Shown piece by piece: positions 13,104 through 32,000 of a stretch of 32,000 nucleotides of DNA. The notes below the pieces were generated by a model. That model was not told the origin of the DNA, ran no database searches, and saw nothing but the letters and a program-made list of their open reading frames with translations. Source of the stretch: Aciduliprofundum boonei T469. GTDB lineage: Archaea > Thermoplasmatota > Thermoplasmata > Thermoplasmatales > Aciduliprofundaceae. Within the stretch, counting starts at the first letter, position 1. Every line of letters starts with the position of its first letter. The position numbers were made by a program, and so were the translations under genes. The stretch is from the NCBI RefSeq assembly GCF_000025665.1, contig NC_013926.1, forward strand, positions 990,001 through 1,022,000, written 5' to 3'.

Positions 13104-14515
13104 ATGTTGAGAACATAATGAAAGAAGTTAGCTCTGAGTTCGGAAAGGTCATGCCTTTGAAAATAGTGGACGATGCTCCATCCGCGTACTTTGACTGGGA
13201 AAGCGTCACGCTGCCAAAGAGGTTCTTAGATTGGGATGATGAAATGATAAAGAATGTAATAAGGCACGAATTTGGCCATCTATTTTTCTCTCCCCGAAAC
13301 CCGGATGTGGGTGTGGTAATCAACTACATAGCTAGCTTGTTTGGTTACGAGAATCCATGGCTCTTTACGAACATTCTCACAGATTTGATTGTGGATACCA
13401 CGAATATGGAAGTGTTCGGAGAAGAGTACCTGCGTTTTCTGGAGAGGAGCATAGAAAATGCGGATAAAGGAAGAACCTTGAGAGTGATGGCCGGGGTTTA
13501 TCATGAAAAGGCTGAAAAGCTAAATCTAAAAACCTCACTTCCAAAAAATCATATAGGTAAGGAAATATACAAAATACTCAACAACAATGAGACGGATTTT
13601 TACCTGAGAGTTATAGAGATTGCAAAGTTGTTCTTACCCTATTATGATTTTCAAACACCACTTCATTTCAGGATACTCATATTTTCCGATGACTCGCCGG
13701 CAGAGATTGCAAAATCTCTCATAAAGGTGAAGGTTGGAAGCGATGTGATGGACGAGCTAAGGAGATTGGCAGGAGAAAGGGGAGGATTCTTGATATCCGA
13801 TCCAGTCATGGTCGCATACGAGAAGATGAAGATGGTTTCCACATACTTGGAGCTTGAGGAGAGTATGGAAGGCATGGAGAGCAAACAGATCAACTATGGG
13901 CCTTGGAGCATCGGTGACGAGCCCTACGAGCTGGACATGACTAAAACTCTAACCAGTTACGGCATAGTGCTTCCCGGAGTTTATTCTACAAAATCCGAGA
14001 GCATAGACATGGGAAACGAGAGAGAAGGAAAAAGCTACAGAGACTCAATAATAATCTTGGATTGTAGTGGCTCTATGGAAGGAGAGCCTTTTGAGAGAGC
14101 TAGAGAAGCTGCGTATGTTATGGCCAGAGAGATCCAGAAAGCCGGGAAGAAAGTAGGGCTAATCCCATTCTCCGGGTATGTCATTGAAGATAGGGTGGTG
14201 TATCCCACAACCGATTCTTCAAGATTGAACGATATACTCACTAGAATCAAGCCGGGGGGAGGTACAATGCTTCAATACGCGCTCCAATTCGCTTTGCAAT
14301 TCGGGAAAGAATACTATGTTTACATATTATCCGATTCTGATGTTTACGATGTGCGTTCCACAGAGGAGCTTTTGGATGAGTTTAGGGGAAGATGCACTTT
14401 CTTCCTCATATCTTATGAAGAGGTAAACAGGTGGTTTGAAAAGGATGGAATAAAGATTGTTGAGATCTCTCCAGATGGTATTGTTAAGAGAGCTTATGAG
14501 GAGGTGAAAAAATGA
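13100..14515 (+). CDS. Putative zinc metallopeptidase (HExxH, DUF2201_N-like) fused to a von Willebrand factor A (vWA) domain
   Basis: 471 aa. HEFGH at nt 13265-13279, with downstream NILTDLIVDT. vWA MIDAS motif DCSGS at nt 14060-14074, followed by GLIPFSG and GGGT. ATGA overlap with the MoxR gene. Confidence 0.8.
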   Translation: MNVENIMKEVSSEFGKVMPLKIVDDAPSAYFDWESVTLPKRFLDWDDEMIKNVIRHEFGHLFFSPRNPDVGVVINYIASLFGYENPWLFTNILTDLIVDTTNMEVFGEEYLRFLERSIENADKGRTLRVMAGVYHEKAEKLNLKTSLPKNHIGKEIYKILNNNETDFYLRVIEIAKLFLPYYDFQTPLHFRILIFSDDSPAEIAKSLIKVKVGSDVMDELRRLAGERGGFLISDPVMVAYEKMKMVSTYLELEESMEGMESKQINYGPWSIGDEPYELDMTKTLTSYGIVLPGVYSTKSESIDMGNEREGKSYRDSIIILDCSGSMEGEPFERAREAAYVMAREIQKAGKKVGLIPFSGYVIEDRVVYPTTDSSRLNDILTRIKPGGGTMLQYALQFALQFGKEYYVYILSDSDVYDVRSTEELLDEFRGRCTFFLISYEEVNRWFEKDGIKIVEISPDGIVKRAYEEVKK

Positions 14516-15183
14516 AGAATTTAGATAAGTATGTTAAGGACCTAACGGAAAGGATAAAGATAAACTATGAAGGTTTGAAAATATCCGAAAAGGGTACGGA
14601 AATGGAGAAGAAAGCTTACATGGGCTTTTACATTCCTTACCCAAAAACTCTAGATAACGATATAATCATTGGAAGTGAAGTTGATGAAATGGCACCTATC
14701 AGAAGATCCTCAATAGTTGTTTGGAGAATAACCCCAAGTGGTTTTGAGCTCATATCTGCTAAGGACCAAAAATTTGAGCACAAGGTTAGGAAAATGATTG
14801 AAGAGACAAGAGACAAGGTGGTTTACACTTACGATGAAACAAAGCTATCTCCCAATATTACCCGACTGCTTCAAAGAAGAAGGCTAAAGGACTTGGAAGA
14901 ATCTGTTGAGAGATTATCATTGCACATGGATAAAAGCGACATACCTGTGCCTTGGGATCCAATTGATTTTGATGATGTATCAGAAGCTTGGAGAAGTGGA
15001 GATACGAGGATTGTGAACCTTCACTGCGTTGCCGAAGCCCTGCGTATTTATTCCATCTACCTAATAGTGAAAGTCACAGAGATGATAAGAAGCTTGAACA
15101 CCGTAACCCTAGACCAGTTCATGGTGAAAGGAAACTCCAATGGGAAGATAAAACTTCCAAAGCTGGTGGATTCGACTTACTAA
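14512..15183 (+). CDS. Hypothetical protein, last gene of the MoxR-vWA operon
   Basis: 223 aa. ATGA overlap with the upstream gene, preceded by GAGGAGGTGA. I recognise no motif. Confidence 0.7.
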   Translation: MKNLDKYVKDLTERIKINYEGLKISEKGTEMEKKAYMGFYIPYPKTLDNDIIIGSEVDEMAPIRRSSIVVWRITPSGFELISAKDQKFEHKVRKMIEETRDKVVYTYDETKLSPNITRLLQRRRLKDLEESVERLSLHMDKSDIPVPWDPIDFDDVSEAWRSGDTRIVNLHCVAEALRIYSIYLIVKVTEMIRSLNTVTLDQFMVKGNSNGKIKLPKLVDSTY

Positions 15184-16423: not shown

Positions 16424-17269
16424 TCACAATACACCTCCGTAGATTATCGCTCCACCTTCCATCTTCGGTATCTCCCATTCTTCCTCATCCTTCATGTTTA
16501 TGTAAATTATCGCTTTCAAATCTTCATTGTTCAAAGTCAATTTCTCTGGATGTTCTCTATCCACCACAACAACCATTCCCTTTCCACGCTTGACATACCA
16601 GAACAGCTCTCCCTCAACCTTGTCAATCACCTTTCCATCCCTGTATAACTCAACGAAACCATAGATGTGCTTTTTGAGAACGGGTGGCATTTTGGGGTGC
16701 AACCTTATCATGTCTCCTTCCAATCCCTCACCGTCTTTCTTCATCCTTATCTCTCCCCTGTATTCTTTCACGGGATAACCCCAGCCAACAACTCTCAAAG
16801 TCCCGTTCTTCAACTCTACCTTGTCTATCAACCCCGCATGGAGCTTCCAGAGGGTCTCGTTATCAACCAAGTATCTCGCTTTCCTTGTGGATATGTGGTA
16901 GAATTCCTCATCCTCCGTTATCCACTCAAACCAATCGCTCTTTGCGAAGGTATCGTTTATGTGTATGACCTCGTAATTGATTTCTCCCCCGATTAACTTG
17001 TTCTTTACGAGGATTATTCCCTTTCCCGTCTCCAAAATCCCTTCCACATACGGCAGGTACTCTCCCACGAACACTCTCTTTCTCCAAGGTTCTACACAAT
17101 CCAAGCATACCAGAGATTCCATCTCTATGGTTCCGTAAATGAATGGGTCTTCGCCGTACCTTTGCGGTTTAATCGTTATTTTGCCACTCTTGAACACGAA
17201 CCCGCCAACCCAAACTACATCTCCTCTATACTCTCTCCAATCATACTCATCATAATACATTCTCACCAC
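16424..17269 (-). CDS. Hypothetical protein co-transcribed with the recombinase
   Basis: 281-aa ORF overlapping the 3' end of the recombinase gene by 20 nt. I recognise no motif. Confidence 0.65.
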   Translation of the reverse strand: MVRMYYDEYDWREYRGDVVWVGGFVFKSGKITIKPQRYGEDPFIYGTIEMESLVCLDCVEPWRKRVFVGEYLPYVEGILETGKGIILVKNKLIGGEINYEVIHINDTFAKSDWFEWITEDEEFYHISTRKARYLVDNETLWKLHAGLIDKVELKNGTLRVVGWGYPVKEYRGEIRMKKDGEGLEGDMIRLHPKMPPVLKKHIYGFVELYRDGKVIDKVEGELFWYVKRGKGMVVVVDREHPEKLTLNNEDLKAIIYINMKDEEEWEIPKMEGGAIIYGGVL

Positions 17270-17843
17270 CTCTAAATCCGCTCCATCCAGCAGTTCTTAC
17301 TTTTATTTCCTCCACATCCTCATCAGTGAAGGGTAGGTTTAGATAGTGGTTCATTGCAGTAATCGTAGTATGGCCTTGGGACATTGCTATCAAAGGCATT
17401 GCGTTTGGATAACTGACTACGAGCCAACTCTCCCATGTCTTGCGGAATGTTTTTACGCTTATATTCCCCAGCCCTGCTTTCTTTCCCCAGAAGGTTAGCA
17501 TGTTGTTTAGGGTTATTCTATCTGGCATTTTATCTACATACAGAATAAAATTCTCCACATGCGTTATTCCTTGCGTGGAGAGATAAACATACCTTTCCTT
17601 CATCGTTCTCTTCTTCTTTCTGGACGCTTCGGGAGGGAGATAAATGCTCCTCGTTTTCTTGTCAAACCACTCTGGATGTTTTTGAAACCTTTGCAATTCT
17701 ATGTATCTCATCCCCGTGTAGAGCAGGGCATTTATTATCTCCCTGTACCTGTATTTCAGGTCCTTGCGAAAGATTGTGTCAAGGAATGTGTCATATTCCT
17801 TTGGGCGCAGTATCCTTACACCATTCTTTATTATCGTTCTCAT
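17250..17843 (-). CDS. Tyrosine recombinase/integrase, catalytic domain only
   Basis: 197 aa. Arg box LLYTGMRYIEL. HxxR-like position KTFRKTW. C-terminal MSQGHTTITAMNHYL carries the candidate Tyr nucleophile. There is no N-terminal core-binding domain. Confidence 0.7.
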   Translation of the reverse strand: MRTIIKNGVRILRPKEYDTFLDTIFRKDLKYRYREIINALLYTGMRYIELQRFQKHPEWFDKKTRSIYLPPEASRKKKRTMKERYVYLSTQGITHVENFILYVDKMPDRITLNNMLTFWGKKAGLGNISVKTFRKTWESWLVVSYPNAMPLIAMSQGHTTITAMNHYLNLPFTDEDVEEIKVRTAGWSGFRGGENVL

Positions 17844-19717: not shown

Positions 19718-20287
19718 ATGGACATGATAGATGTGTTTTTAGGGGTCATGCAAGTGGATGGCGGGGATGTAATCCTGCATTTCAATTGGGATGCCGATAC
19801 ACGGAATTTGATGGAAATACAAGAGGAATTTGAAATCGATGGAAAAATATACATAACTTTAGCTGCACCCTTGCAGGACATAGGAACCTTGAAAGATTAT
19901 GGCATAATAAACAAAGGAAATAAAACCACATTCAACGATACGGTGAATAAAATTCTTGAAAGATGGAACTTCTTTAAAGAGAAATTGAAAAATGGAGAAA
20001 TAGAAATGCAAATACTCGCAGAAAATCCATTCATTGTAATAGACGATGATAAAAGATTCGCTTTTTTCTTGTTTTACAATATAATATTCCTTGCAGAGAT
20101 AATTGGAAAGTATAGAAGAAAGGAGACATACAAAAAATTGAGAATACGATTCTCATCCCTTGAGTACGGAGAAGGAGAATTGGATGGCACGATTAAATTG
20201 AAAGTAAAAGAAATTGACACCACCGATAACGAGGAACTATCTTCAGCATTAGTAGAAGCAGTATTGAAAGAAGAGGGAGATATATAA
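19718..20287 (+). CDS. Hypothetical protein
   Basis: 189-aa ORF preceded by GGTGATG. I recognise no motif. Confidence 0.65.
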   Translation: MDMIDVFLGVMQVDGGDVILHFNWDADTRNLMEIQEEFEIDGKIYITLAAPLQDIGTLKDYGIINKGNKTTFNDTVNKILERWNFFKEKLKNGEIEMQILAENPFIVIDDDKRFAFFLFYNIIFLAEIIGKYRRKETYKKLRIRFSSLEYGEGELDGTIKLKVKEIDTTDNEELSSALVEAVLKEEGDI

Positions 20288-20572
20288 TGGTATTTCGTGA
20301 ATAGAGGCATTGAGAGTTTAATTATTATGTTTTCACTTTCAGAATTATCTTTTAGGAAGTTAATATTTACATATATAATGTGGGGTTCTACTATTCATAA
20401 ATACCCCCAGATTTTAAGTTAGCTAGTGACATTTATTTTCACATGTCAATCTGTAGCGCTCTTTAACCAAGATAATATCTCTTATCGCCCTAGAGTTTAT
20501 AGCTTCTTCAATTAGTGCATGTTAATTAAATGTTAATCATATTCATATATTCTGTTTATTATTACGCGTATC

Positions 20573-20821
20573 ATGGATGCTAAATTATTAGCATTTCTAA
20601 AGGACGGTAAGTACAGAATTAAAACATTGGAGTTACTATATAAAAAGCCAAGACTTTCCAGCGAGTTGGCCACTTTATTGAACATAAATAGGGCATCTAT
20701 GAGTAGGATTCTAAGTGATCTAAAGAAGAAGGATCTCGTCGAATCTACATCCGATGGAACTAGAACTGTTGTTTATACTATTACAGAAAAGGGGAAAAAA
20801 TGTCTGGAGGAGTTAAAATGA
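20573..20821 (+). CDS. Small winged-helix transcriptional regulator (ArsR/MarR-like)
   Basis: 82 aa. RLSSELATLLNINRASMSRILSDLKKKDLVES, then a wing TRTVVYTITEKG. Its stop overlaps the ATG of the next gene (ATGA at 20818-20821). Confidence 0.75.
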   Translation: MDAKLLAFLKDGKYRIKTLELLYKKPRLSSELATLLNINRASMSRILSDLKKKDLVESTSDGTRTVVYTITEKGKKCLEELK

Positions 20822-22002
20822 GTAATGTAAATGGGAGAATACTAAATCAAAATGGAGGTAATATAATGTTAAATGAGAAGAGAAAACTAAAGAATAAAGC
20901 AATTGATTTCTTAAAGAGTTTTGGTGAAACAGATGAAGATAAAAGAAAAATAGAAGCAAAGTTCAGAAATATAAATGGAAAAACAGGTAGATACAATGTT
21001 CCTGATGATTTATGGCAAAAAAGAACGGCTAGAAAAAATAGAGTCTTAATTTCATGGAAGACTGTGAAAAAGAACGGTCTTACTTTAGAACAACTTGAAA
21101 CTTTTTACGGAGGTGTAGTTGTAGAATTTATTAACGATGATTACTTCAAAGAAGATCCAGATGATGAACTATTCAACAAACTTAAAAGTAGATTAGGTTC
21201 GGATGAGATAGTATCATCTATGATATCTATTAGAAATGAGGATGGTACATCTTCTTCACAAAAAGAAAGGGCGGCTATGGAAAAATTAGAAAAAGAATTC
21301 CCGGATTACAAAGAACATATAATAAAAAGAAAAGGAGGTGTGAGATATCGCGGTACAGGTAATGATGTTTGGGAAGGTTTTATCTACTATTCAATCAAAG
21401 GTGGGCAGCAAGATACCAGGAATGCATATGACGAAACAGGAATTAAACCCCCTCAACTATTTAATCCGGCCTCTGAGTATGCCAATGAAGAGGTATCGTT
21501 AGACATTGATCTTGTTTTGATTTATTTTGCAATGTTTAGTATAGATAAAGATTCTCTTGACACTCAAAAGAGAGATAAGTATGAGATGCTACTAAAAAGA
21601 TTGGAATATGTATTGGAAAATACTGAATATGATGAAGGAAACCTTTTGGAATACTGCAGAAATCACCCTAGTTTACTTTTGGATGAGGGGAAATTGTATG
21701 ATCCAATCCAAGTAGAAGAAATAAAAATTACTGATTTTGCAATTGATGACAAGAATGATCCACGCTCTATAGACATTGCTCACGATGAGGCAGTTAATAA
21801 AGAGAAATATTACTTTGACAAAAAACATGGGTGTATTTTAACCGCTGCTAGACCAACAAATCTCTTCTGGTCAAGGCATTCCTCCAACATGATGCAGCAA
21901 AATTACACTTTAGAGGAGTACTTTATGAAAGAAGAAGAAAGAGTAAAAAAGCGAAAAGAGAAGCTCAATTATAACAAATCAAAAAAGTTTTTATATGATT
22001 AA
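20818..22002 (+). CDS. Putative restriction endonuclease (possible HNH / beta-beta-alpha-Me type)
   Basis: About 394 aa from the ATG at 20818; the track start at 20800 is also possible. The C-terminal IDIAHDEAVNK...PTNLFWSRHSSNMMQQN has H...N...N spacing reminiscent of His-Me finger nucleases. It lies between a regulator and a DNA methyltransferase. Confidence 0.4.
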   Translation: MSNVNGRILNQNGGNIMLNEKRKLKNKAIDFLKSFGETDEDKRKIEAKFRNINGKTGRYNVPDDLWQKRTARKNRVLISWKTVKKNGLTLEQLETFYGGVVVEFINDDYFKEDPDDELFNKLKSRLGSDEIVSSMISIRNEDGTSSSQKERAAMEKLEKEFPDYKEHIIKRKGGVRYRGTGNDVWEGFIYYSIKGGQQDTRNAYDETGIKPPQLFNPASEYANEEVSLDIDLVLIYFAMFSIDKDSLDTQKRDKYEMLLKRLEYVLENTEYDEGNLLEYCRNHPSLLLDEGKLYDPIQVEEIKITDFAIDDKNDPRSIDIAHDEAVNKEKYYFDKKHGCILTAARPTNLFWSRHSSNMMQQNYTLEEYFMKEEERVKKRKEKLNYNKSKKFLYD

Positions 22003-22016
22003 TGTATATTTAACAT

Positions 22017-24575
22017 GTGATTAACATGATTAAAAGAAATAGCTTGGAAATAATCGAAAGTTTTTTACAGAGGTATAATATCAAATTAAATGTAAAAAGA
22101 TATCTCAAGAAATATTTGGTGGATTCAGATGAATATCAAGAGCTTCCAGATGATATAATTGATAGAATTATTGCTGATGGTTATAATCAAAACAGTGACC
22201 TTGTTAAAAAGATAGCTGAGTATTTTCTTAAAAAATACAATATTTATTTTGGAAGAATTCAAAAAGAGCAACTGAAAAAGTTTATAGATTATGGGTTTCA
22301 AAAAGATTTAGATATTTTAATTCAATTAATTCATCAAGACCTTCCAAAAGATTTGGATATACATAAAGAGATAGTAAAACTTATAAAGGATAATGGTCTA
22401 AAAAATGATCCTACTCCATATATAAATAATTTAAAGAATGCTATTAAAAAGAGAGATGAGAAACGTATTACCGATTATCTATTGTTTCTTTACTCTCGTT
22501 TAGTTAACCTAAATGAAAGAAAATATATGTCTCTATATTCTATATTCAAGGAAAATGAGGCAGAAATAAGAAAGGAACTTACTAATTTAGATTATCTTAA
22601 ATTAAAAGAATATTGTGACGATAAAACTAAATTAAAAAGGGAAGAAGCTGTCAAAAAATTTAATAGTGCGTATATGAATTTGCTTGAAAAAGAGAGCGGA
22701 GAAATAGAGAAAGCAGGATTGATTTATTTTGTGGTAGATCAAAAACTTTTTGACCATTTCAAAAATGAAAAAGATTTCTTCTCGTACCTTTTTGAATTGA
22801 TTAAAAAAGCATATTCTGAGTTGAAAAATCATAGAACATTAGCAATTAAGGTTCATAATATTTTTTCAAGAGGAATCAATATAAAATGGAAAATATATTC
22901 TTATTTAACAATTTATGCGGAAAAGTTTAGGAGAGAAAAAGAAAATAGAGGATACTACAAACCCTGGGAAATTTGTGAAGATGTATTAAAACACAAATTT
23001 AAAATCTATTTGAATGAGTATGATAGAAGAGTATTAACGGATTTTTATAAGAATGATCTTCCAAAAGGATATCTAAAAAGAAGTAAAAAGTTACAAAATA
23101 AAGAAGTTATAGAAACCATAGAGTTTTTCAAAAAAATTAACTATGGTTTTTCTTTTGAAGATTGTTTTATACTAAAAACAGATGAATTTACTAAAAATTC
23201 AAAGGGTATTGAATTTATAAAGAATGAAAATGAATTACTACTAATCTTTAATAAGCATCAATTTGATGATAGAAAAATTCCCTGCCCTGTGTGTGGAGGA
23301 TTAAAAATTTCAGGAAATTCATATCCTCAAATTGGAGTTAAAAGCTGGGAATGTAAAAATCCACTATGCGCTGCTAGAAGTAAAACAAATAGAGGAAAGA
23401 GATATTCCAAGAGATCTATATTAATGCAAGAAGCAGCCTTTGACTTTTCTAAGGAGAATCAAATACCAAAAGAGCTTATTAAGGTATGGAGAAAAGATGT
23501 GGTATTGGAGTGGAACTATAACTCACTGTATTCTATGTTGGTAAAATATTTTACTTTTGTTGGGGATAAAATAATTCTATTAAATGCAGAAAAGCCAAAA
23601 TTATTTAGTCTCATAGCATCAAAGGAGAAGCGAATACCACAAAATATGCAAACAAGAGATTTTTTAGATTTTTCTGTTAAAAATAGAAACGAGTTTGATG
23701 CTTTTTTCAATTCTCAATTTTTCAAATTATTTTTGTATAAAAAAGATGATTATAAATCTTCTAGTTTAAATTTGAATTTAAATATGGATAACAACAAGAT
23801 GAAGATAATTGTAGGTGATAGCTATAAGGTTTTAGAACTATTTAAGAACAAAATAACAAATATGGTTACTTCACCACCATATTATAATGCAAGGGAATAT
23901 TCTAAATGGGACAATCTATTTAATTATCTTAACGACATATATAACATTATTTTAAAGGCACATGATGCTTTAATTAAAGGTGGTGTGTTTTTTTATAATA
24001 TAGGTGATATTTTTGATAATGAGAATATAATTGTAAAATCAAAGATGGGTGAGAAAAGAATCCCCTTAGGTGCATATACTATTTTGATTTTTGAAAAAGC
24101 AGGTTTTGAGTTATTAGATGATATAATTTGGTATAAAGGTGAACCTCAAAGTAACAGGCATAAGAATGATGGAATGTACACACCTTACTATCAAAGACCA
24201 ACCAATTGTTATGAACATATGTTTATATTTAAGAAAGAGGGAGATGTAATCATAAATAAAGATAAGGATGAAATAAAAATAAAGAGTAACATTATTAAAT
24301 TTGCCCCTGTGGTTAAAATTGGTAAAGGTGGAGAGAATAGGTATGGGCATACTGCACCTTTTCCCAAGATGATCCCGTTACTATCTATTTCCACCTTTAC
24401 TAACCAAGGAGATATTGTACTAGACCCTTTCTCTGGTAGTGGTACAACACCAATAGTTGCATCTATAAATGGGCGTAAGGCTATAGGCATTGAAATTAAT
24501 AAAGAATATGCATTGCTTTCTATAAAGAAGGCAAAGGATGAAAACTTAGATGCTGAGTTAATAGATCTAAATTGA
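22017..24575 (+). CDS. Beta-class N4/N6 DNA methyltransferase domain fused to a ~590-aa N-terminal region with a zinc ribbon
   Basis: 852 aa. Motif IV TSPPYYN precedes motif I LDPFSGSGTTPIVA, and DIIWYKGEP lies between them. Zinc ribbon CPVCGG...CKNPLC. The start is either GTG 22017 or ATG 22026. Confidence 0.85.
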   Translation: MINMIKRNSLEIIESFLQRYNIKLNVKRYLKKYLVDSDEYQELPDDIIDRIIADGYNQNSDLVKKIAEYFLKKYNIYFGRIQKEQLKKFIDYGFQKDLDILIQLIHQDLPKDLDIHKEIVKLIKDNGLKNDPTPYINNLKNAIKKRDEKRITDYLLFLYSRLVNLNERKYMSLYSIFKENEAEIRKELTNLDYLKLKEYCDDKTKLKREEAVKKFNSAYMNLLEKESGEIEKAGLIYFVVDQKLFDHFKNEKDFFSYLFELIKKAYSELKNHRTLAIKVHNIFSRGINIKWKIYSYLTIYAEKFRREKENRGYYKPWEICEDVLKHKFKIYLNEYDRRVLTDFYKNDLPKGYLKRSKKLQNKEVIETIEFFKKINYGFSFEDCFILKTDEFTKNSKGIEFIKNENELLLIFNKHQFDDRKIPCPVCGGLKISGNSYPQIGVKSWECKNPLCAARSKTNRGKRYSKRSILMQEAAFDFSKENQIPKELIKVWRKDVVLEWNYNSLYSMLVKYFTFVGDKIILLNAEKPKLFSLIASKEKRIPQNMQTRDFLDFSVKNRNEFDAFFNSQFFKLFLYKKDDYKSSSLNLNLNMDNNKMKIIVGDSYKVLELFKNKITNMVTSPPYYNAREYSKWDNLFNYLNDIYNIILKAHDALIKGGVFFYNIGDIFDNENIIVKSKMGEKRIPLGAYTILIFEKAGFELLDDIIWYKGEPQSNRHKNDGMYTPYYQRPTNCYEHMFIFKKEGDVIINKDKDEIKIKSNIIKFAPVVKIGKGGENRYGHTAPFPKMIPLLSISTFTNQGDIVLDPFSGSGTTPIVASINGRKAIGIEINKEYALLSIKKAKDENLDAELIDLN

Positions 24576-24730
24576 TTTATATTGATCTAGCATATAGTAA
24601 ATTAAACACTAAACTCATAAGAGGTTTATTTCTTGTATTTATTTACCCACTATATAAGATGAGAAGCTTCAAATAAAGTAACAAACTTAAAAATAAACAT
24701 TATTTCTCTCAATTAGAAATTAAAACATCA

Positions 24731-26431
24731 TCAAGCAATGAATTTATCTTCTTCTTCCGAAGCGTATATGCGTATGGGAACTTTCACCACTCCCAATCTC
24801 AACAGCCCAACGGAGTATCCCGCCTCTTTCGCATTATGCCTTATGGTTATGTATCTCTCCTCTTGGGGAACGAACTTGTAGAACTTTCTCACATCTTCGG
24901 ATATGTAATCGTGATAAAGGAGAAGGTGCATTTCGGTGTTTTCCATTATGGCCCTTGTGTATTTGTTCAAGAAGGCATCGTTTGCCGATTGCGTTAAGAG
25001 GGTTAATCCCGTTTGAAAGTGCCTTGTGTGCCTTGCCATCCAACTCAACATCTCCGCAGCTCTTTCGTGGCTCCAGAGATGATGAACCTCATCCACATAT
25101 ACCAATTTCTTCCTGTCCTCATACTTCTTCATCTTTATGTGTGCGTATATGTAGTCAATAATCATAGTCATGAAGAATGCGAGAAGATTATCTGGGACAT
25201 CTCCCAAGTCAAAATTAACTATGTCCTTCTCCATCTTGAAATTCGTTTTTCTATTGAGGAAAGCGAGAGAACCTTTCTTGAATATCTCCAGAACCATAGA
25301 TACTCTCTTTAACTTCTCCTCCTTGGCACAACGCTCTATCAAATCTTCCATTATCGGATGTTCGTTCTCCCTGTAAAGCTGGTTCAGGATTACATCCAAG
25401 AGAGCCATCTCCTCCCCGTTCATCTGGAAAAGAGTTTCTAACATCGCAATTACACTTCTCACCTTGTTTGCCACTTCCTCTCCTCTCAATTCCAGAGGGT
25501 TTATCACATGTTTTCCCTGCCAGAGATTTATGTTTATTCCTCCCAGAGCTTTGAATGTCCCAGCGTTCTCGCTCAAAGGGTCTATGGCGTAAATCATCAC
25601 ATCAGGATTGACATTGTAAGCCCTCAAAATCGTGAGTTTCTCAAAGTAAGATTTACCCGAACCTGTCTTACCGAAAATGAGCATGTTTTGTGAGGGTAAA
25701 TAAAATCGATCCACGAAAACGGGTGTGCTGTTTATGTCGTTTATCCCGTAGAGTATCATGTCCTCTCCTAACACTCCCGCAAACTCGGAAATGAAAGGAA
25801 ATGAGGCAGTTATGACATCGGTATGAACGAACCTTCCCTTGTAGTATGGGATGTTCCTGTCCATCATGGGTAGCGTGGATTTGAATATAGCCCAAACCCT
25901 GTAATAGCCCTTGATTAACTTGAAATTCATGGCTTGTAATGCACTTTCTATTTTCCCCAGAGTTTCCTCCGCTTCCTTGTAGGTTCTTCCCTTTACCGCG
26001 ATACTGAGGGTTAGAAAGTATGCGTGGGTTTTCCTTGCGGAGATTAAATCCTTTAACTTCGATAAGGAATCATACTCTAATTTGAGTTTAGAATACTTTG
26101 GCGATGTTTCTCCCGTTGTTAGTAATTCTGCCTTTATGTTCGTCAAATCCGTGTGTATGAGAGCAATTGCCTTCTCATCCTTCAACCTGTCCAGATGTAA
26201 GCTTATATCCACATTCATGTATGAGGAGAGCAAGTTCCTCAAATAGCCATATTCTAACATCGTGGGGTATTCTTTCGGGAGAAGTGGGAAGATGTATAAC
26301 CTCTTGATTTTCGCTTCTATGTGGTTCTTGTAAATCTCTATCTTTGGTTTTAGAACATTCTTTAAGTTGATTGGCTGCAATCTCAACCTCATCTTTTCCT
26401 TGTCAAAGATTATGTCCTTCTTAATTACCAT
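24731..26431 (-). CDS. VirB4/TrbE/CedB-like conjugation-type ATPase
   Basis: 566 aa. Walker A GKTGSGKS (nt 25649-25672). Walker B KLVYVDEVHHLW. LTLLTQSANDAF motif. The N-terminal domain resembles VirB4 N-domains. Confidence 0.75.
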   Translation of the reverse strand: MVIKKDIIFDKEKMRLRLQPINLKNVLKPKIEIYKNHIEAKIKRLYIFPLLPKEYPTMLEYGYLRNLLSSYMNVDISLHLDRLKDEKAIALIHTDLTNIKAELLTTGETSPKYSKLKLEYDSLSKLKDLISARKTHAYFLTLSIAVKGRTYKEAEETLGKIESALQAMNFKLIKGYYRVWAIFKSTLPMMDRNIPYYKGRFVHTDVITASFPFISEFAGVLGEDMILYGINDINSTPVFVDRFYLPSQNMLIFGKTGSGKSYFEKLTILRAYNVNPDVMIYAIDPLSENAGTFKALGGININLWQGKHVINPLELRGEEVANKVRSVIAMLETLFQMNGEEMALLDVILNQLYRENEHPIMEDLIERCAKEEKLKRVSMVLEIFKKGSLAFLNRKTNFKMEKDIVNFDLGDVPDNLLAFFMTMIIDYIYAHIKMKKYEDRKKLVYVDEVHHLWSHERAAEMLSWMARHTRHFQTGLTLLTQSANDAFLNKYTRAIMENTEMHLLLYHDYISEDVRKFYKFVPQEERYITIRHNAKEAGYSVGLLRLGVVKVPIRIYASEEEDKFIA

Positions 26432-26835
26432 TCCTCATCCCCCCTCGCTTTCTCTATCAGAGCGTCCTTGATTGCCCAATAACCCAGCATGTTTATGAAA
26501 AACGATGAAAGGTATGCTCCAAGAATGTATGCTTGAAAGCGTGGAGAGAGTGAAAAGAGAAGAAAGAACATCCCCGTGAGGAACGGGGCTATGTATCTGA
26601 ACTTACCCGTGATTTCCTCCCTGTAATTGAGGAAGGTTATCAAAACCCCTCCTATTGCGAGAAGGTAGAGAATAGATGAGGCGATTATGCTTGTCCAAGC
26701 GATGAAGAAGAATAAAACCGATGAGAATAGAGCAATCTTGTAAAACTCCTCTGGGCTAACTCTCCAATCTATATCAAACGGCAATCTCTTTACTTTCTTT
26801 TCTTCCTTCTTTTTCTTGCGGAATAGTCCCATCAC
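26425..26835 (-). CDS. Small polytopic membrane protein
   Basis: 136 aa with 3-4 hydrophobic helices and a basic N-terminus KKKKEEKKVKR. It overlaps both neighbouring genes. Confidence 0.65.
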   Translation of the reverse strand: MMGLFRKKKKEEKKVKRLPFDIDWRVSPEEFYKIALFSSVLFFFIAWTSIIASSILYLLAIGGVLITFLNYREEITGKFRYIAPFLTGMFFLLFSLSPRFQAYILGAYLSSFFINMLGYWAIKDALIEKARGDEEW

Positions 26836-27572
26836 ATCACCTCCTTGTAGATGTTGATTAGTTCCTGTCCTTTGAGAACCCTGTATCCTATGCCCATGTT
26901 GGTTAGCCCTACGGAGAGAATATCAATTCTCTCTCTTATCTTGTCCCACGCAATCTTTGCCCTTACTTCCTTCTTTCCCGTTATCTCGAAGGCATTTACT
27001 CCCACGACTATGAAGTATCTTTGAATGTATAGCCCCTCGCAAGCTTCTCGGATTAAGTCCTTGTAATCGTTTGCAGTTGGGGTATCATTGACAACCGTAT
27101 CTAAAAACGGCTGGTAATTCAACCTCTCGGTATGAACAACGAACTGCAACGGGAAATCACAGGAATTTAACATGCTTTCGTATTTGAGCAATAATCCTAT
27201 CCTATCCTCATCGCTCATGAATGCGTAGCTTATGCCATTCACTTCCAAAACGGAAAAGTAATACTTCCCGTTGAAAAGAACCTCTCCGAAATAGAGAGAT
27301 AATGGCAAAGATGGGATTTCGTTCTTCATTCGGAGTTTTAGGTATTGCCAGAATTCTAAACCATCGAATTTCTTAAACGCCATTATAGCCGATAAGGGCA
27401 GGAAGAAGATTAGGAGATACATCGCATGAACCAGCATGGATAAGCCACTGAACACTCCTAAATACATCACGAATTTTAGAATGTCCTCTATCTTTATCGT
27501 TCCAAACGCTATCTTCCTGCCGAGATTTTCCGGTACTGCTGCGTATTTCAAGTTCTCATCCTCCACCGCCAT
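26832..27572 (-). CDS. Membrane-hairpin protein with a VirB4-N-terminal-like soluble domain (possible VirB3-like role)
   Basis: 246 aa. TM hairpin FVMYLGVFSGLSMLVHAMYLLIFFLPLSAIMAF. This is followed by YYFSVLEVNGISYAFMSDEDRIGLLLKYESML, which resembles the first domain of VirB4-type ATPases. Confidence 0.4.
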   Translation of the reverse strand: MAVEDENLKYAAVPENLGRKIAFGTIKIEDILKFVMYLGVFSGLSMLVHAMYLLIFFLPLSAIMAFKKFDGLEFWQYLKLRMKNEIPSLPLSLYFGEVLFNGKYYFSVLEVNGISYAFMSDEDRIGLLLKYESMLNSCDFPLQFVVHTERLNYQPFLDTVVNDTPTANDYKDLIREACEGLYIQRYFIVVGVNAFEITGKKEVRAKIAWDKIRERIDILSVGLTNMGIGYRVLKGQELINIYKEVM

Positions 27573-28824
27573 TATTTCTCCTCCTTAAATAGTCATAAGC
27601 GTGGTACGCAGTCCTTCCTATCAGATAAGCACCTGTTCCTACCGCTCCCGCAGTTGCTCCTCCAAGAGTATTCCCGTGTGTCTGGTTGAAAGCTCTATGC
27701 CCAATAGCAAAGCCATGCGTTCCTGCTGCCGCATACTTTCCTGCTGCCTGTCCCAAACTTCCTTTGAGTGCCACAGCTCCAACCGCTCCACCGCCAGAAC
27801 CACCCGTTATCGTTGCTCTCTCCGCTCCCTTTATCGCTATCATGTTCATCAGTCCAGCCCCAACGGTTAGCCCTCTGGAGAGATGTTCTCCCGCTCTGCC
27901 AAATCCTATACCAGAGAGGATGAACGGCTCTTTTGCGAGGAGATAAATAGCTCCAACGGAGATTACCATACCAGCAATCACGAAGGTTATGTGATTTGCC
28001 ACAGGCCCCACAAGCATTAGGGGTATTATCATCACGAAGGGCAAGAACACCAAATCCACCGCCAAGAACCACAACCTCTCTCCTATGCTGGTAGTCCAAG
28101 GAGTGAGCAATAATACGGCAGCAATCGGTAAGAGAACGATAAGCACGGCAAAGAGAACATCCCTGACTACCACAACCATTAACAGCATTAGGGTAAAATC
28201 CACAGATAAGAAACTCCAGATGTATTTTAAGAGGAGTTGCTCAAGGGTTGAAACAAGAAATGCAGTTGTTGGTGGTTGTAATTGAGATTTGATGTAATTG
28301 TAGAATGTGGGTTCTTTCCACGCTCCCAAAGCCCCGATGTTTATGTTGTAAAGAACCATGTATGCGTATTTGCCCATCATGATTAGGTAATTCACCACAT
28401 AAATGCTCCCGTATGCAAGGATTAACGCTATGATTAATCTTGGGATTATGCTCTTTAACCTTCCAAAGAAACTCTCGAATAAATCGGCATAGAGATACAT
28501 TAGCCCCACAATCCAAAGCATGAACACTATGAGAGCATTTACAATCTTCTCCACGATTACCCCGTTCAAGTATATGGCTGCACTCATCATGCCGTGTATT
28601 CCCGTCGTGGATACATCCTTGTAGTTCGGGAGATTGAGAAGGTTTGGAAACAATTCCGAAGGTCTCATGAGATAAAGAAATCCTTTCCATGCCATGTCCG
28701 CAATCTGATAGTTGAGGAACATGGCAAAAAAAGTTAATGCAGCCGATACCGCAATCGCTATGCCCCACCAAACTGCTGAGTCCACACCGAAAAGCCCTTC
28801 CTCCTTTTCCCACACAATCCTCAT
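27556..28824 (-). CDS. VirB6/TrbL-like polytopic membrane protein with Gly/Ala-rich C-terminal tail
   Basis: 422 aa with at least 7 hydrophobic segments. The C-terminus reads GGSGGGAVGAVALKGSLGQAAGKYAAAGTHG...RRRNNGGGG. Confidence 0.5.
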   Translation of the reverse strand: MRIVWEKEEGLFGVDSAVWWGIAIAVSAALTFFAMFLNYQIADMAWKGFLYLMRPSELFPNLLNLPNYKDVSTTGIHGMMSAAIYLNGVIVEKIVNALIVFMLWIVGLMYLYADLFESFFGRLKSIIPRLIIALILAYGSIYVVNYLIMMGKYAYMVLYNINIGALGAWKEPTFYNYIKSQLQPPTTAFLVSTLEQLLLKYIWSFLSVDFTLMLLMVVVVRDVLFAVLIVLLPIAAVLLLTPWTTSIGERLWFLAVDLVFLPFVMIIPLMLVGPVANHITFVIAGMVISVGAIYLLAKEPFILSGIGFGRAGEHLSRGLTVGAGLMNMIAIKGAERATITGGSGGGAVGAVALKGSLGQAAGKYAAAGTHGFAIGHRAFNQTHGNTLGGATAGAVGTGAYLIGRTAYHAYDYLRRRNNGGGG

Positions 28825-30042
28825 TTAGCCACCTCCGAAGACCCAATTGACGAGTTCGAACATCGCTGGATAACCAAGCACGATTATTGCGAGGATGAGA
28901 GTTCCCACGCTCACCTTCCAGAGCATTTCCTTCGCTAACATCTTCCTCTCCTCGCTATCGCTAAACCATAGTATTCCCTCTCTAACCCAAGCCACCGCTA
29001 CCAAAAATCCCGTGAATGCAGCTATGCCCTGCCAAAATGGAGGGTATTGTTCGCTTGTGGAGTATGCTCCATAGTTGTAAGCGTATTTCTCATCCACATT
29101 CTCAAATATAACATAGGGAGAGTTGTTGAACGCTTCTCCCTTCCCGTTGTTCTCAAAGGCAATACCGATGTGCGAGTTCCTTATGTAGATGTAAGAGTTG
29201 TTATTTCCACGAAGAATGAAACTCACATTTCCTTCCACTATGCCTATTCCTCCATAAGTCCATTCACCATCCCCGTATGAATAATACTTGTTGTTGAGCA
29301 TCATATCATGATTGAAGAAGAACTCATCCACATTCTCCAGCCACAAATCTGGGGTATGGCTATCTATGATACACACGCTATTGTCATCGAAATTAACCAC
29401 TCCCACATCACGAATTACAATTCCCGGTTCTTCTACGAGGGAATTGCTGCTTATGTCCAGAGAATCACCCATGAAACTGACATCCGAACCCTTGCCCCCG
29501 TCCAATTGAATGGGTGTGCCTTCGGAGCTGTCATACACATAGTTGTAGAAATCTATGTCCGTAAATCCGTTTGCGTTGATTTGTGTATCGTAGAGCCATC
29601 CTATCTCTTGGTTGCCGTTTTCTGGATTAGTGAATTGTAATCCGAAAACTACATATTTGCAGTTCTGGACTATTATCGTGGATTTCTGAAATCCTGTAAA
29701 GCCGATTACATAGTTATACACATTCTTGACTGTTATAGTCATGGATTGCGTGGAGAGATGAAGCCATCCCGTTGCCGTCTTCTTGTACATGTAGATGTTG
29801 AAAAGCAAAAGAGGTTCTCCGTTTATGTATGTTATCTGGACAGGGTCATGGTGTATGTTCCCGTTGCTGTCCATGTAATTGCTCCAATCTGCCCAAGTGT
29901 CGTATGCGTCTTGGTCTCCGTCTATTTCCAGAGTGTTCTGGTTGATTATCGTGGTATCTGCCTTTGCGTTCTGCGTGGGTATGAGGAAGATTAAAAGAGA
30001 GGAAATGATTAAAATTCCCACAATGAGAGCTTTTGCCTTCAT
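28825..30042 (-). CDS. Secreted protein with C-terminal VirB2/TrbC-like two-helix membrane domain
   Basis: 405 aa. Signal peptide ending NAKA. An approximately 300-aa ectodomain with beta-helix-like repeats (NVSFILRGNNNSYIYIRNSHIGIAFENNG). C-terminal hairpin (nt 28828-29043) with the loop WFSDSEERKMLAKE. Confidence 0.6.
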   Translation of the reverse strand: MKAKALIVGILIISSLLIFLIPTQNAKADTTIINQNTLEIDGDQDAYDTWADWSNYMDSNGNIHHDPVQITYINGEPLLLFNIYMYKKTATGWLHLSTQSMTITVKNVYNYVIGFTGFQKSTIIVQNCKYVVFGLQFTNPENGNQEIGWLYDTQINANGFTDIDFYNYVYDSSEGTPIQLDGGKGSDVSFMGDSLDISSNSLVEEPGIVIRDVGVVNFDDNSVCIIDSHTPDLWLENVDEFFFNHDMMLNNKYYSYGDGEWTYGGIGIVEGNVSFILRGNNNSYIYIRNSHIGIAFENNGKGEAFNNSPYVIFENVDEKYAYNYGAYSTSEQYPPFWQGIAAFTGFLVAVAWVREGILWFSDSEERKMLAKEMLWKVSVGTLILAIIVLGYPAMFELVNWVFGGG

Positions 30043-30045
30043 TTT

Positions 30046-31008
30046 CTACCACGCCCCTACCAGCCATCCCGCTATAATCCACATAGCACCCAATACCGCT
30101 ATGGCAACGATTATCGTCCCCACGAATGCGTTTAGAGATTTCTCTTTCGCCTTCTTTTTCTTGTCTGGGTCGCTGGAAAAGTAATTCACCGCCACATTCA
30201 CCCAGAGTATAGATATGATTATTCCTCCCGTGATGGATAGGAGTTCCTGCATTCTCTCCACTTCATACTCCACATAAGTTTGATTTACCGCTCCCGTGTG
30301 CCCAAACCAGCCACCGAGTATGCCAAAGAAACCTCCTCCACCGTGCCACGATGAACCTCCTCCCCACCAACTTCCTCCTCCACCGCTCCAACTACCACCT
30401 CCGCCACTCCATCCACCTCCTCCCCACCATCCGCCAGAACCACCAGAACTGCTCTGCTTGTTGTAGGTGATGTTTAGATATACCCAATCTATGTAGAAAT
30501 GCCCACTTGCCCAACCGCTACTCCAACCAGCTTTTACCTCTACCCTCTTTCCTACATACTTCTTGACAAAGCTCGTTATGTTCATAGTTCCGATTTCCCA
30601 CTTGCCCCTTGTTGTAGGGAAATATTGCTTCGTTCCCGATATGTCTAAATAAATTCTCAGGCTTTGAGAGTAAAGAGAATTGTAATACTTCATGCTCAAA
30701 GTTGCGGATTTTATCAGGGTTGAGTTTATGTCTGGCAAGGTTAAGTATTGATAGATGTAGGCATAAGCATATTCTACACCCTCGCCATAGTGGCTATGCG
30801 TCCAAAAATACGCCTCTCCATTTTGGAAAACACATCCCACATAATACCCTTGATAATCATGATATCTTGCTACACTCCAATTCCCACCACCGCTATCAAA
30901 GCTCGGATTTTTTAGAAACTGCTCCGTCACGATTTTTGCATGTGCCCCTCCAACCACAAGCATTCCGATTAAGAGCAGGGAAATTAGCAGGGTTGTAATC
31001 CTTTTCAC
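30046..31008 (-). CDS. Secreted jelly-roll-like domain, Gly/Trp linker and VirB2/TrbC-like C-terminal domain
   Basis: 320 aa. Signal peptide ending GGAHA. The N-terminal FLKNPSFDSGGGNWSV resembles the start of CBM4_9/galactose-binding-like domains. G/W/S linker at residues 186-238. C-terminal hairpin with the loop YFSSDPDKKKKAKE. Confidence 0.6.
   Translation of the reverse strand: MKRITTLLISLLLIGMLVVGGAHAKIVTEQFLKNPSFDSGGGNWSVARYHDYQGYYVGCVFQNGEAYFWTHSHYGEGVEYAYAYIYQYLTLPDINSTLIKSATLSMKYYNSLYSQSLRIYLDISGTKQYFPTTRGKWEIGTMNITSFVKKYVGKRVEVKAGWSSGWASGHFYIDWVYLNITYNKQSSSGGSGGWWGGGGWSGGGGSWSGGGGSWWGGGSSWHGGGGFFGILGGWFGHTGAVNQTYVEYEVERMQELLSITGGIIISILWVNVAVNYFSSDPDKKKKAKEKSLNAFVGTIIVAIAVLGAMWIIAGWLVGAW
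30295..30453 (-). repeat. Low-complexity coding repeat (Gly/Trp/Ser linker)
   Basis: The plus strand shows reiterated CCACC/CCTCC units. These encode SSSGGSGGWWGGGGWSGGGGSWSGGGGSWWGGGSSWHGGGGFFGILGGWFGH. Confidence 0.8.
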
Positions 31009-32000
31009 AATATCACCCCCACTATGTCAAACGCTCCTACTGCCCATCCCGCAAGGAGCCATATAGTTCCCAGCACCGCCATGGCGATTATGAGCGTTGC
31101 GAGGAGAGCTTTTAGAGCGTTCTCTTTTGCCCGTGATTTCCTATCGGGGTCATCGGAGAAGAAATCCAGCGCCTCTTTCACCCAGAGAACACTTATCACA
31201 GCACCGCCAACTATGGCTAATGCCCTCTGGATGTTCCCCACCACATACTCCACATAGGTTGCGTTCCCAGAGGTATTACCTGCAAACCAAACTCCTCCAC
31301 TTCCATGCCAAAATCCTCCTCCTCCACTCCAACCGCTACCGCTTCCCCACCAGCCACCAGAGCCACCTCCACTCCAAGAGCCACCATTGCCCCACCAACC
31401 TCCGCTACCGCTTGATGATACCTTATAAGTTATCGTGAGAGAAACATTGTAAAGGGTTGTTTCCACATACTTAAGCTTAGAACCACTTACTATGTGCAAA
31501 CCTGCTAAAACATACAAGGATTTTCCAGCATATTGCTTTACAATATCCGTTAAATTTGCTGTGTATATCTTCTCATAAGCCATACCAAGTTGGCTTTCCC
31601 ATCCCTCATTTGAAACATTGTATCCATCCTTTACAGCCACCCAAACATATTCCTTTGTACTAGAATCTTCATCGGCTTCATAATCTAACGAAAAAGTTGC
31701 GTTTATTATATCTCCATTCGGGATGTTAATCTTTTGCCAAATATAGCCATACCCTTCACCTAAAGTTGTCTCATCATCACTTCTCGCTTGAACCACATCA
31801 TACCATCGTCCTTTGTTGGAGTAATGGTATAAAAGCCAATCTATGCGCGAATCTCCCGCATGTGTATAAGTCCAATAAGCGCTATTGTTCGAAGATGTGA
31901 AGGTATTATCTTGAACTAATTGCTCCGTTTTTATGGTCTCTGCACTCACTTTTCCAGAGGATAAGAGTATGGATGTCAAGATTAGTACCACGAAAGATAG
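31005..32000 (-). CDS. Paralogue of the preceding gene (jelly-roll-like domain, Gly/Trp linker, VirB2/TrbC-like domain); 5' end may lie beyond the window
   Basis: The track starts at GTG 31991, but the frame stays open to nt 32000 (LSF before VVLILTSILLSSGKVSA). G/W/S linker at residues 192-237. C-terminal hairpin with the loop FFSDDPDRKSRAKE. ATGA overlap with the downstream gene. Confidence 0.6.
   Translation of the reverse strand, partial: LSFVVLILTSILLSSGKVSAETIKTEQLVQDNTFTSSNNSAYWTYTHAGDSRIDWLLYHYSNKGRWYDVVQARSDDETTLGEGYGYIWQKINIPNGDIINATFSLDYEADEDSSTKEYVWVAVKDGYNVSNEGWESQLGMAYEKIYTANLTDIVKQYAGKSLYVLAGLHIVSGSKLKYVETTLYNVSLTITYKVSSSGSGGWWGNGGSWSGGGSGGWWGSGSGWSGGGGFWHGSGGVWFAGNTSGNATYVEYVVGNIQRALAIVGGAVISVLWVKEALDFFSDDPDRKSRAKENALKALLATLIIAMAVLGTIWLLAGWAVGAFDIVGVIL
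31281..31418 (-). repeat. Low-complexity coding repeat (Gly/Trp/Ser linker)
   Basis: Encodes SSSGSGGWWGNGGSWSGGGSGGWWGSGSGWSGGGGFWHGSGGVWF. Confidence 0.8.

Follow-up and report, generated by a model that had tools for sequence, protein, structure and literature searches.

In a 32,000-nucleotide stretch of the genome of the deep-sea archaeon Aciduliprofundum boonei T469 (NC_013926.1, positions 990,001 to 1,022,000; hereafter "the window") we found a pilin-gene array that forms part of a minimal archaeal operon related to type IV secretion systems (T4SSs) of the conjugation or DNA-exchange type. Three closely packed genes on its minus strand, Aboo_1060 to Aboo_1062, encode proteins termed here A, B and C, each of which ends in a helix-loop-helix module and each of which is currently annotated as "hypothetical protein". 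As judged from profile comparisons, the module of all three is homologous to VirB2-type T4SS pilins of the family PF18895. The initial annotation of this DNA had proposed VirB2/TrbC-type modules fused to large secreted ectodomains in a conjugation-type locus, and both the sequence profiles and the gene context support that proposal. We regard it as about an even call that A, B and C are accessory pilins, which co-assemble with a short pilin and expose glycan-binding domains by which a partner is recognised, with A as a candidate tip subunit. Somewhat more tentatively, we propose an archaeal VirB2-type pilus with interchangeable lectin domains, genetically fused to the pilin module, as its decoration or its tip; recombination would swap the heads and thereby allow programmable partner recognition in DNA exchange, and this would be the first adhesin-pilin fusion known for T4SS pili. 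No prior account of such proteins came up when the literature, though not every journal, was searched for the locus tags, Aciduliprofundum pili and VirB2-lectin fusions, in line with the initial impression that they had not been described.

Pairwise BLASTP comparisons place the paralogy of the three modules far above chance: B and C are 54% identical (E-value 1e-33), and B and A 37% identical over 60 residues (E-value 9e-11). The peptide strings from which this paralogy had originally been noticed match the minus-strand open reading frames (ORFs) exactly, and the modules correspond to the last 79-86 residues of the proteins; the span first given for them, 28828-31235, extends from the end of A's module into that of C. 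According to an AlphaFold2 (AF2) model of the B module (12-sequence alignment, mean predicted local distance difference test score, pLDDT, of 87), the module consists of helices at residues 2-35 and 40-78 joined by a four-residue turn. With 34 and 39 residues, these helices extend well beyond one bilayer span. The loop carries the conserved motif F-S-[DS]-D-P-[DE]-[KR]-K...A-K-E (S-D-P-D-K-K in the loop of B) and an N-x-S/T sequon is conserved immediately before helix 1; the short and the long paralogues share both this loop motif and the first, extramembrane part of helix 1 with its sequon. The features expected of VirB2/TrbC pilins, i.e. two long hydrophobic helices, a short basic loop and a Sec-type leader, are found in the AF2 model, the hydropathy profile and the AXA-type signal peptides. 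In size, however, A, B and C depart from these pilins (typically a leader followed by a mature pilin of ~70-130 residues), as they comprise 320-405 residues owing to the ectodomains of 160-300 residues placed in front of the module.

Taken alone, the Pfam matches of the window proteins are suggestive only: against PF18895 (T4SS_pilin), with its curated cut-off of 26.6 bits, B scores 21.7 bits (E-value 2e-4) and C 19.4 bits, and C additionally shows a weak match (17.8 bits) to PF16943, the family of the VirB2 homologue CagC. The short relatives score higher. Aboo_1065, a short pilin of 160 residues that heads the array, reaches 34.9 bits against PF18895, above the cut-off, and the short pilins heading related arrays, which consist essentially of a signal peptide and the module (156-178 residues), reach 31-34.5 bits. 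Aboo_1065 is in turn 38-57% identical to the window modules with E-values of 4e-10 to 9e-28 (57% to B; 48%, E-value 9e-28, to C; E-value 4e-10 with A). A profile made from 19 pilin-sized relatives, with no window sequence among them, was run on the 336 stop-to-stop ORFs of the window. It matched B with 88.2 bits (E-value 4e-27), C with 87.7 bits (E-value 7e-27) and A with 42.4 bits (E-value 8.5e-13), and none of the other ORFs, including those of the operon's other membrane proteins.

An exhaustive search with a hidden Markov model among 1.84 billion representative proteins returned 71 relatives at E-values of at most 1e-3 (P-numbers designate proteins and L-numbers loci; L006-L012 derive from metagenome-assembled genomes, MAGs, or metagenomes). 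Sorted by hand, they comprise ~30 pilin-sized proteins, ~17 C-terminal fusions of 250-605 residues and ~24 proteins with 3-16 tandem modules; a word-indexed search with the module only had given a single fragment, and the family was seen via full-length queries and the exhaustive search. One of the multi-module proteins, P0021, passes both PF18895 (263 bits) and PF04956 (TrbC/VirB2, 144 bits) and thus ties the module to the classical VirB2 family. P0021 contains 11 module repeats and belongs, together with P0026, P0029, P0063, P0079 and the ORF at 950-4393 of L010, to a group of "poly-pilins", single ORFs of 450-1775 residues with 3-16 VirB2-type modules in tandem, which could be polyprotein precursors or membrane-embedded pseudo-filaments.

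In the AF2 model of full-length B (9-sequence alignment), a beta-sandwich at residues 25-184 (pLDDT of 10-residue blocks ~60-93) is followed by a disordered region at 187-247 (pLDDT ~26-34) and then by the helical hairpin. A Foldseek search with the sandwich gave as the best match the carbohydrate-binding module (CBM) TmCBM61 (2xom, E-value 6.6e-8, TM-score 0.61), and further matches to CBM4, CBM27 and CBM15, legume lectins, a domain of the Klebsiella phage Kp7 tail fibre and an adhesin domain of gingipain. As modelled, the ectodomain of B is a CBM/lectin-like beta-sandwich on a long disordered Gly/Ser/Trp tether; the label "CBM-like", given to it at the outset, agrees with both the model and the Foldseek result. 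The ectodomain of C appears from its sequence to be related to this domain. For that of A, putatively beta-helix-like according to the initial annotation, no sequence match was found in Pfam, PHROG, NCBIfam or PDB, but it is conserved with relatives of 420-605 residues, which are placed likewise upstream of a polytopic membrane protein. The initial annotation had correctly recognized large ectodomains, but its figure of 190-330 residues needs revision, as the folded parts after the signal peptide comprise ~298 (A), ~160 (B) and ~172 (C) residues, and the Gly/Ser/Trp linkers of 57 residues in B and 53 residues in C had not been singled out from them. Such linkers (e.g. GGWWGGGGWSGGGGSWSGGGGSWW) are 36-62 residues long across the homologues P0003-P0023 and are encoded by imperfect repeats of 15-21 nucleotides. 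Their high Trp content is unusual for a flexible linker; stacking on glycans, or contact with the membrane or with the interface of the surface layer (S-layer), are possibilities for the role of these residues.

Comparison of the individual segments reveals a mosaic pattern in the B/C type. Between C and P0003 the signal peptides are 79% and the modules 99% identical, as opposed to 31% for the ectodomains; the corresponding values for P0004 and P0017 are 88%, 94% and 35%. Altogether, in C compared with P0003, and in P0004 compared with P0017, P0020 and P0022, flanks with 79-99% identity surround ectodomains with 25-35% identity. In the pair P0003 and P0008, on the other hand, the ectodomains are 76% identical and the modules only 75%. 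A-type orthologues, by contrast, are evenly conserved (A and its orthologues share 80-88% in the signal peptide, 72-74% in the ectodomain and 70-71% in the module). By these identities, ectodomains have evidently been swapped in a cassette-like manner between conserved signal peptides and modules, and tracts of homology for the exchange are available in the repeat-rich DNA of the linkers and in the conserved 5' ends. Such a mosaic is typical of receptor-binding heads under diversification, and not of a discarded propeptide. The T469 array also contains an 82-residue remnant, in which a signal peptide with the first part of an ectodomain runs directly into the second pilin helix; it looks like a product of recombination.

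The genes that follow A encode a 422-residue polytopic membrane protein in the position of VirB6/CedA, a 246-residue protein with a VirB4 N-terminal domain, a small membrane protein of 136 residues and a VirB4-type ATPase of 566 residues. The polytopic protein is syntenic in L001, L003, L007, L008, L011 and L012. The best NCBIfam matches of the ATPase are the CD1110-family VirB4 (209.8 bits, cut-off 325) and the Mycoplasma integrative and conjugative element (ICE) VirB4 (145.8 bits, cut-off 590), both below the equivalog cut-offs, and it also matches TraC and VirB4_CagE; with tblastn it retrieves 2242 plasmid records, 1668 of them conjugative. The VirB4 is split over 24731-27572 of the minus strand, and since all related loci share this split, it is not a sequencing frameshift; the position of the 136-residue protein between the two parts is likewise kept in all of them, and the L008 orthologue of the 246-residue protein shows a weak match to the TraC-like family of Pfam. 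Pilin or pilin-fusion genes and VirB4 genes are adjacent in seven loci (six beyond T469), some of which have the short pilin alone and some the short pilin with an A-type fusion.

A 14-kb contig of T469 (L013) contains an identical copy of A and the same downstream genes, and we take it to be the full T469 array. It encodes, in this order, a 448-residue protein, a 744-residue membrane protein with Ig-like repeats (Big_7), the 160-residue short pilin, the 82-residue remnant, a 308-residue lectin-type fusion, C, B, A, the 422-, 246- and 135-residue proteins and the 566-residue VirB4. The Big_7 protein has a cytoplasmic tail and is conserved upstream of the pilin array in related loci. An Aciduliprofundum MAG and vent metagenomes show the T469 order as well (L001, L003, L004); in L008 and L009 the Ig-repeat protein is followed by a 124-residue pilin, one A-type fusion, the polytopic protein and the split VirB4, and in L011 and L012 the short pilin alone precedes the polytopic protein. 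The common core is thus the short pilin, to which several lineages add the conserved A type. The B/C type was found only in Aciduliprofundum records and closely related metagenome sequences; a scan of the genome collection yielded one Aciduliprofundum MAG only.

These data can be combined into a scheme of how an array of this kind may work. After export by Sec, the hairpin would insert into the membrane as that of VirB2 does, its basic loop facing the cytoplasm and its two ends the exterior. A VirB4-driven machine would extract the pilins from the membrane and polymerise mainly the short pilin into a tube, with which the B/C-type proteins would co-polymerise via their pilin modules. Their N-terminal lectin domains would then be suspended by flexible tethers outside the pilus; in conjugative-pilus structures the N-terminus of the pilin lies at the periphery. 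The displayed heads could bind glycans on the surface of a partner cell and so confer partner specificity, and A would form the tip or nucleate the pilus, in functional analogy to VirB5. The fusions are more likely accessory than major pilins because a canonical short pilin, Aboo_1065, heads the array, and A is proposed for the tip or for nucleation because its large ectodomain without a linker cannot fit every lattice position and because it is conserved beside the gene in the VirB6 position. Display, rather than plain anchoring, is favoured by the length of the helices, which exceeds the membrane span, by the conservation of the loop and of the start of helix 1, by the folded lectin-like domain, by the disordered linker of 36-62 residues and by the mosaic pattern. 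In mature TedC, an archaeal pilin of the VirB2 fold, 15 N-terminal residues are not resolved in the pilus map and were concluded to be disordered, and in Sulfolobales recognition of glycans by pili sets the species specificity of DNA exchange (PMC9905601).

Several results weigh against accessory pilins carrying glycan-binding heads. None of A, B and C reaches the curated PF18895 cut-off, and for A there is no Pfam match at all. When the PDB was searched with profiles of the module (alignments of 3 and 13 sequences) and of P0021, no CedA1, TedC, VirB2 or TraA was returned. The structural comparison that the initial annotation had recommended, carried out as a Foldseek search of the module model against the PDB, gave generic helical hairpins (best E-value 1.3) and no pilin among the 50 matches listed; searches of either kind say little about a two-helix fold. 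The full-length model of B was built from as few as nine sequences. For the 422-residue polytopic protein no VirB6/TrbL signal was detected in Pfam, NCBIfam or a PDB profile search (6-sequence alignment), so that its equivalence to VirB6 is argued from position and architecture. Neither a coupling protein (VirD4) nor a relaxase was found by Pfam among window ORFs of at least 90 residues, or in L013. Space on the pilus is also a concern: we roughly estimate that ~700 square angstroms of surface are available to each subunit of a 7-9-nm tube, and a ~17-kDa domain on every subunit would crowd a tube of ~8 nm, so that sparse incorporation or a tether is needed. Finally, a pilus in A. boonei, and the entry of the fusions into it, are predictions from the genes.

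An unlikely but credible alternative is that the fusions are retained in the membrane and never enter a filament; the pilin-derived hairpin would serve only as an anchor or as a dock to the T4SS channel and the ectodomains would act below or within the S-layer, possibly with no pilus being formed. On this reading the ectodomains might, for example, tie the machine to the envelope or steady the contact between mating cells at their junction. As a rule, the T4SSs of monoderm bacteria do without pili and use surface adhesins (as described in PMC12857230), and the VirB4 of A. boonei is closest to the monoderm CD1110 and Mycoplasma-ICE types. The want of a specific pilin match in the fold search, and the difficulty of placing the ~298-residue linker-less ectodomain of A in a pilus lattice, would also be accounted for. 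Yet the short pilin that heads the array passes PF18895, and as such a pilin is universal in the related loci, a polymer is the expected product. The fusions, moreover, keep the whole module, including the helix ends and the loop motif, at 38-57% identity to the short pilin, which would be superfluous for a mere anchor. A tether of 53-57 residues would by our own estimate rarely reach past an archaeal S-layer, and the cassette-like turnover of the ectodomains suggests variable external targets.

It is improbable, in our view, that the ectodomain and linker are long pro-regions, which are cleaved off to leave a module of ~80 residues that alone is polymerised, the array then supplying sequence variants of the major pilin. 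Leaders are indeed removed from bacterial VirB2, TrbC and TraA and from archaeal TedC (PMC9905601). In the short pilins a variable stretch of 35-55 residues follows the signal peptide and precedes, right in front of helix 1, a conserved A-Q-A-K/A-N-G-S motif, which could be a processing site, and the modules of the paralogues differ by ~45-70%. However, a folded lectin-like ectodomain with N-glycosylation sequons, whose domain class is conserved across paralogues, would be costly to discard, and no A-x-A-type site precedes the modules of B and C, where the junction is rich in Gly, Ser and Trp. The diversification, too, is concentrated in the ectodomain and spares the module, whereas a variable exposed module would lead one to expect the reverse. 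A generic two-helix membrane anchor that resembles T4SS pilins by chance or convergence is very improbable: Foldseek and the PDB profile searches do return generic hairpins and unrelated membrane proteins, and hydrophobic hairpins do draw weak spurious Pfam matches (Colicin_V, CrgA), but the stand-alone pilin profile finds the three modules with E-values of 4e-27, 7e-27 and 9e-13 and leaves the other membrane proteins of the window unmatched, the short paralogues exceed the curated Pfam threshold, P0021 forms a bridge to PF04956, and the genes always stand beside VirB4 genes in seven loci.

The features of the locus are listed below. The GTG start codon of B overlaps the stop codon of C (junction TTGTGA), B and A are separated by 3 nucleotides, and the stop codon of A abuts the start of the 422-residue polytopic gene; the junctions remain tight down to VirB4, ranging from 17-nucleotide overlaps to a 3-nucleotide gap. 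C is truncated in the window, its first 11 codons lying beyond the window end. The signal peptides of the three proteins are of the Sec/signal peptidase I (SPase I) type and end in AKA, AHA or VSA.

Features of the pilin array and of the T4SS-like operon (window positions unless a locus is named)
Feature	Position	Strand	Length	Sequence, evidence or remark
Protein A (Aboo_1060, ADD08869.1)	28825-30042	-	405 aa	
A Sec signal peptide	29959..30042	-		translation MKAKALIVGILIISSLLIFLIPTQNAKA/DTT
A ectodomain, no flexible linker before module	29065..29958	-	~298 aa	
A pilin module, helix 1 shorter, PPF in front	28828..29064	-	79 aa	stand-alone pilin profile, BLASTP
Protein B (Aboo_1061; tag inferred from neighbouring tags)	30046-31008	-	320 aa	
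B Sec signal peptide	30937..31008	-		translation MKRITTLLISLLLIGMLVVGGAHA/KIV
B ectodomain, beta-sandwich	30457..30936	-	~160 aa	AF2 model and Foldseek
B Gly/Ser/Trp linker	30286..30456	-	57 aa	100% G/S/W over 30 aa; 15-21-nt imperfect tandem repeats
B VirB2-type pilin module	30049..30285	-	79 aa	PF18895, stand-alone pilin profile, AF2
Protein C (Aboo_1062, full sequence P0088)	31005->32000	-	342 aa full length	cut by window end
C Sec signal peptide	31941..32000	-		translation LSFVVLILTSILLSSGKVSA/ETIK
C ectodomain, 5 N-x-S/T sequons	31425..31940	-	~172 aa	~33% identity to B ectodomain
C Gly/Ser/Trp-rich linker	31266..31424	-	53 aa	97% G/S/W over 30 aa; imperfect 21-nt tandem repeats
C VirB2-type pilin module	31008..31265	-	86 aa	PF18895, PF16943 CagC, stand-alone pilin profile
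Polytopic membrane protein, Gly-rich tail, VirB6/CedA position	27556..28824	-	422 aa	start abuts A stop
N-terminal membrane hairpin and VirB4 N-terminal domain	26832..27572	-	246 aa	NCBIfam VirB4_plasma 126-273, E-value 4e-5; CD1110 20-164
Small membrane protein between VirB4 parts	26425..26835	-	136 aa	overlapping start/stop codons
VirB4-type ATPase	24731..26431	-	566 aa	Pfam TraG P-loop, AAA_10, DUF87
Array beyond window position 32000	L013 4128-5782			Aboo_1065, 82-aa remnant, 308-aa fusion

Two other identities were considered for A, B and C and rejected. Type IV pilins and archaellins do not fit, as the signal peptides are of the SPase I type with no class III signal and the polymerisation-type module is C-terminal; an anchor of the PGF-CTERM/archaeosortase type was rejected from the sequence, in view of the two long helices and the SPase I signal peptides.

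Several observations concern the mobility and the surroundings of the cluster. The draft genome of T469 has, on separate contigs, three copies of the short pilin that differ slightly from one another, as well as another, partial record of the A type (ABOONEI_2525, ABOONEI_2078, EDY34398.1, ABOONEI_2587); the genome probably contains more than one copy of the pilin cluster, which is consistent with a mobile element. One ICE, possibly the present locus, has been reported in A. boonei (Guglielmini et al. 2011, PMC3158045). Relationship to the pT26-2 plasmid family of Thermococcales and Methanococcales, which has a VirB4-like ATPase and numerous transmembrane proteins, was considered and rejected, as the host is A. 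boonei and the ATPase best matches Firmicute CD1110-type and haloarchaeal plasmid VirB4s. At 16424-17843 of the window (minus strand) a 197-residue tyrosine-recombinase (Phage_integrase) ORF overlaps a 281-residue ORF; the former, perhaps a fragment of an integrase, may mark an integrated element to which the T4SS cluster belongs. The VirB4 gene is adjoined by a block of low guanine-cytosine content at 20000-24600 (plus strand; 25-34% compared with ~40-45% around it), which encodes a 400-residue protein with no Pfam match and an 852-residue protein with a C-terminal N6_N4 DNA methylase domain, and which is probably a horizontally acquired insert of the restriction-modification type. Farther away, the window contains two groups of genes at 4510-15183: on the minus strand those of an 890-residue AAA_15/SMC-like ATPase with a calcineurin-like phosphoesterase, an SbcCD-like pair, and of two CARF/Csa3-like proteins (8359-9755), and on the plus strand an operon (9843-15183) that encodes a MoxR-type AAA_5 ATPase along with a VWA-domain protein. 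In the Aciduliprofundum MAG locus L003 (6373-7533, minus strand), a secreted 386-residue protein with a serine-peptidase-like GTSxxAP motif, which looks like that of sedolisin- or subtilase-type peptidases, is encoded just upstream of the pilin array; since L001 and L013 lack the protein at the corresponding place, it is doubtful that it takes part in the processing of pilins.

VirB2-type pilins have been described as small proteins (PMC12102498, PMC12857230, PMC9905601), and recognition of the target is usually entrusted to a separate protein, such as VirB5 in Gram-negative bacteria or cell-wall-anchored adhesins in Gram-positive ones (PMC12857230). The fusion of a pilin module to sugar-binding-like domains suggests a pilus with exchangeable "grappling hooks". 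A natural lectin-pilin fusion would show that the lattice of a conjugative pilus tolerates large N-terminal cargo, and it would give a testable hypothesis for how S-layer archaea choose their partners in T4SS-mediated DNA exchange. As A. boonei T469 is cultured, isolation of filaments, mass spectrometry and cryo-electron microscopy are feasible.

Among the systems described so far, the pilin arrays of Patescibacteria, which stand next to a VirB4 of the MPF-FATA type, share with the A. boonei locus the Pfam pilin family (PF18895/PF04956) and a VirB4 of the monoderm type (PMC12102498, PMC12857230), and the present locus extends pilin arrays beside such a VirB4 from Patescibacteria to Archaea. 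According to the same accounts, they comprise 2-11 divergent tandem pilin paralogues beside virB4, usually with no relaxase nearby, and their pilus is inferred and not yet seen. The A. boonei array differs in its archaeal host, in the folded ectodomain of 160-300 residues in most of its members, in the Gly/Ser/Trp tethers and in the exchange of cassettes; the descriptions of the bacterial arrays in PMC12102498 and PMC12857230 make no mention of fusions.

A close archaeal parallel is provided by the Ced and Ted DNA-import systems, whose pilins CedA1 and TedC are helix-loop-helix proteins of the VirB2 fold (Beltran et al. 2023, PMC9905601). Beside the pilin genes lie those of a VirB6-like polytopic protein, of small membrane proteins and of an ATPase resembling VirB4, and TedC has a cleaved signal peptide of the Sec type (PMC9905601); the A. 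boonei fusions, too, begin with a Sec-type signal peptide. The minimal gene set of a pilin, a polytopic protein, one or more small membrane proteins and VirB4, with no relaxase found, is shared with the window, L013, L003 and L011. On the other hand, no similarity to CedA1 or TedC was detected in profile searches of all PDB chains, among which we assume the Ced/Ted pilus entries to be present, and the only Ced ATPase model that scored, NCBIfam CedD, gave 27.2 bits against a cut-off of 600, compared with 209.8 bits for the CD1110 VirB4. The Ced and Ted pilins are small, and their description in PMC9905601 reports no ectodomain fusions. From conjugative T4SSs and ICEs of the MPF-FATA type the A. 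boonei system differs in that neither the window nor L013 yielded a VirD4 coupling protein or a relaxase.

The design of the fusions has analogues in unrelated surface fibres. In FimH and PapG, the tip adhesins of chaperone-usher pili, a receptor-binding head is carried on the fibre, and the subunits, which have an Ig-like fold, assemble by donor-strand exchange. Their design, in which a lectin domain at the N-terminus is followed by a C-terminal domain that copies the polymerising subunit, obeys the same logic as that in A. boonei; this is analogy only and not homology, as both the folds and the assembly are unrelated, the T4SS subunit being a lipid-embedded helical hairpin extracted by VirB4. 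In Sulfolobales, the Ups type IV pili read S-layer glycans and thereby bring about species-specific aggregation before Ced-mediated DNA exchange (PMC9905601), i.e. the role proposed here for the A. boonei ectodomains. Ups pili, however, form a separate machine, whose subunits are type IV pilins that carry class III signal peptides, whereas in A. boonei the putative recognition domains are built into the T4SS pilin genes themselves and are preceded by Sec/SPase I signals. Finally, the LPxTG adhesins of the PrgB type, encoded in the T4SS operons of monoderm bacteria, bind polymers of the recipient envelope and promote mating-pair formation in Gram-positive conjugation (PMC12857230). They are linked to peptidoglycan by sortase and possess no pilin module, whereas the anchor of the A. 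boonei proteins is a hairpin of the VirB2 type.

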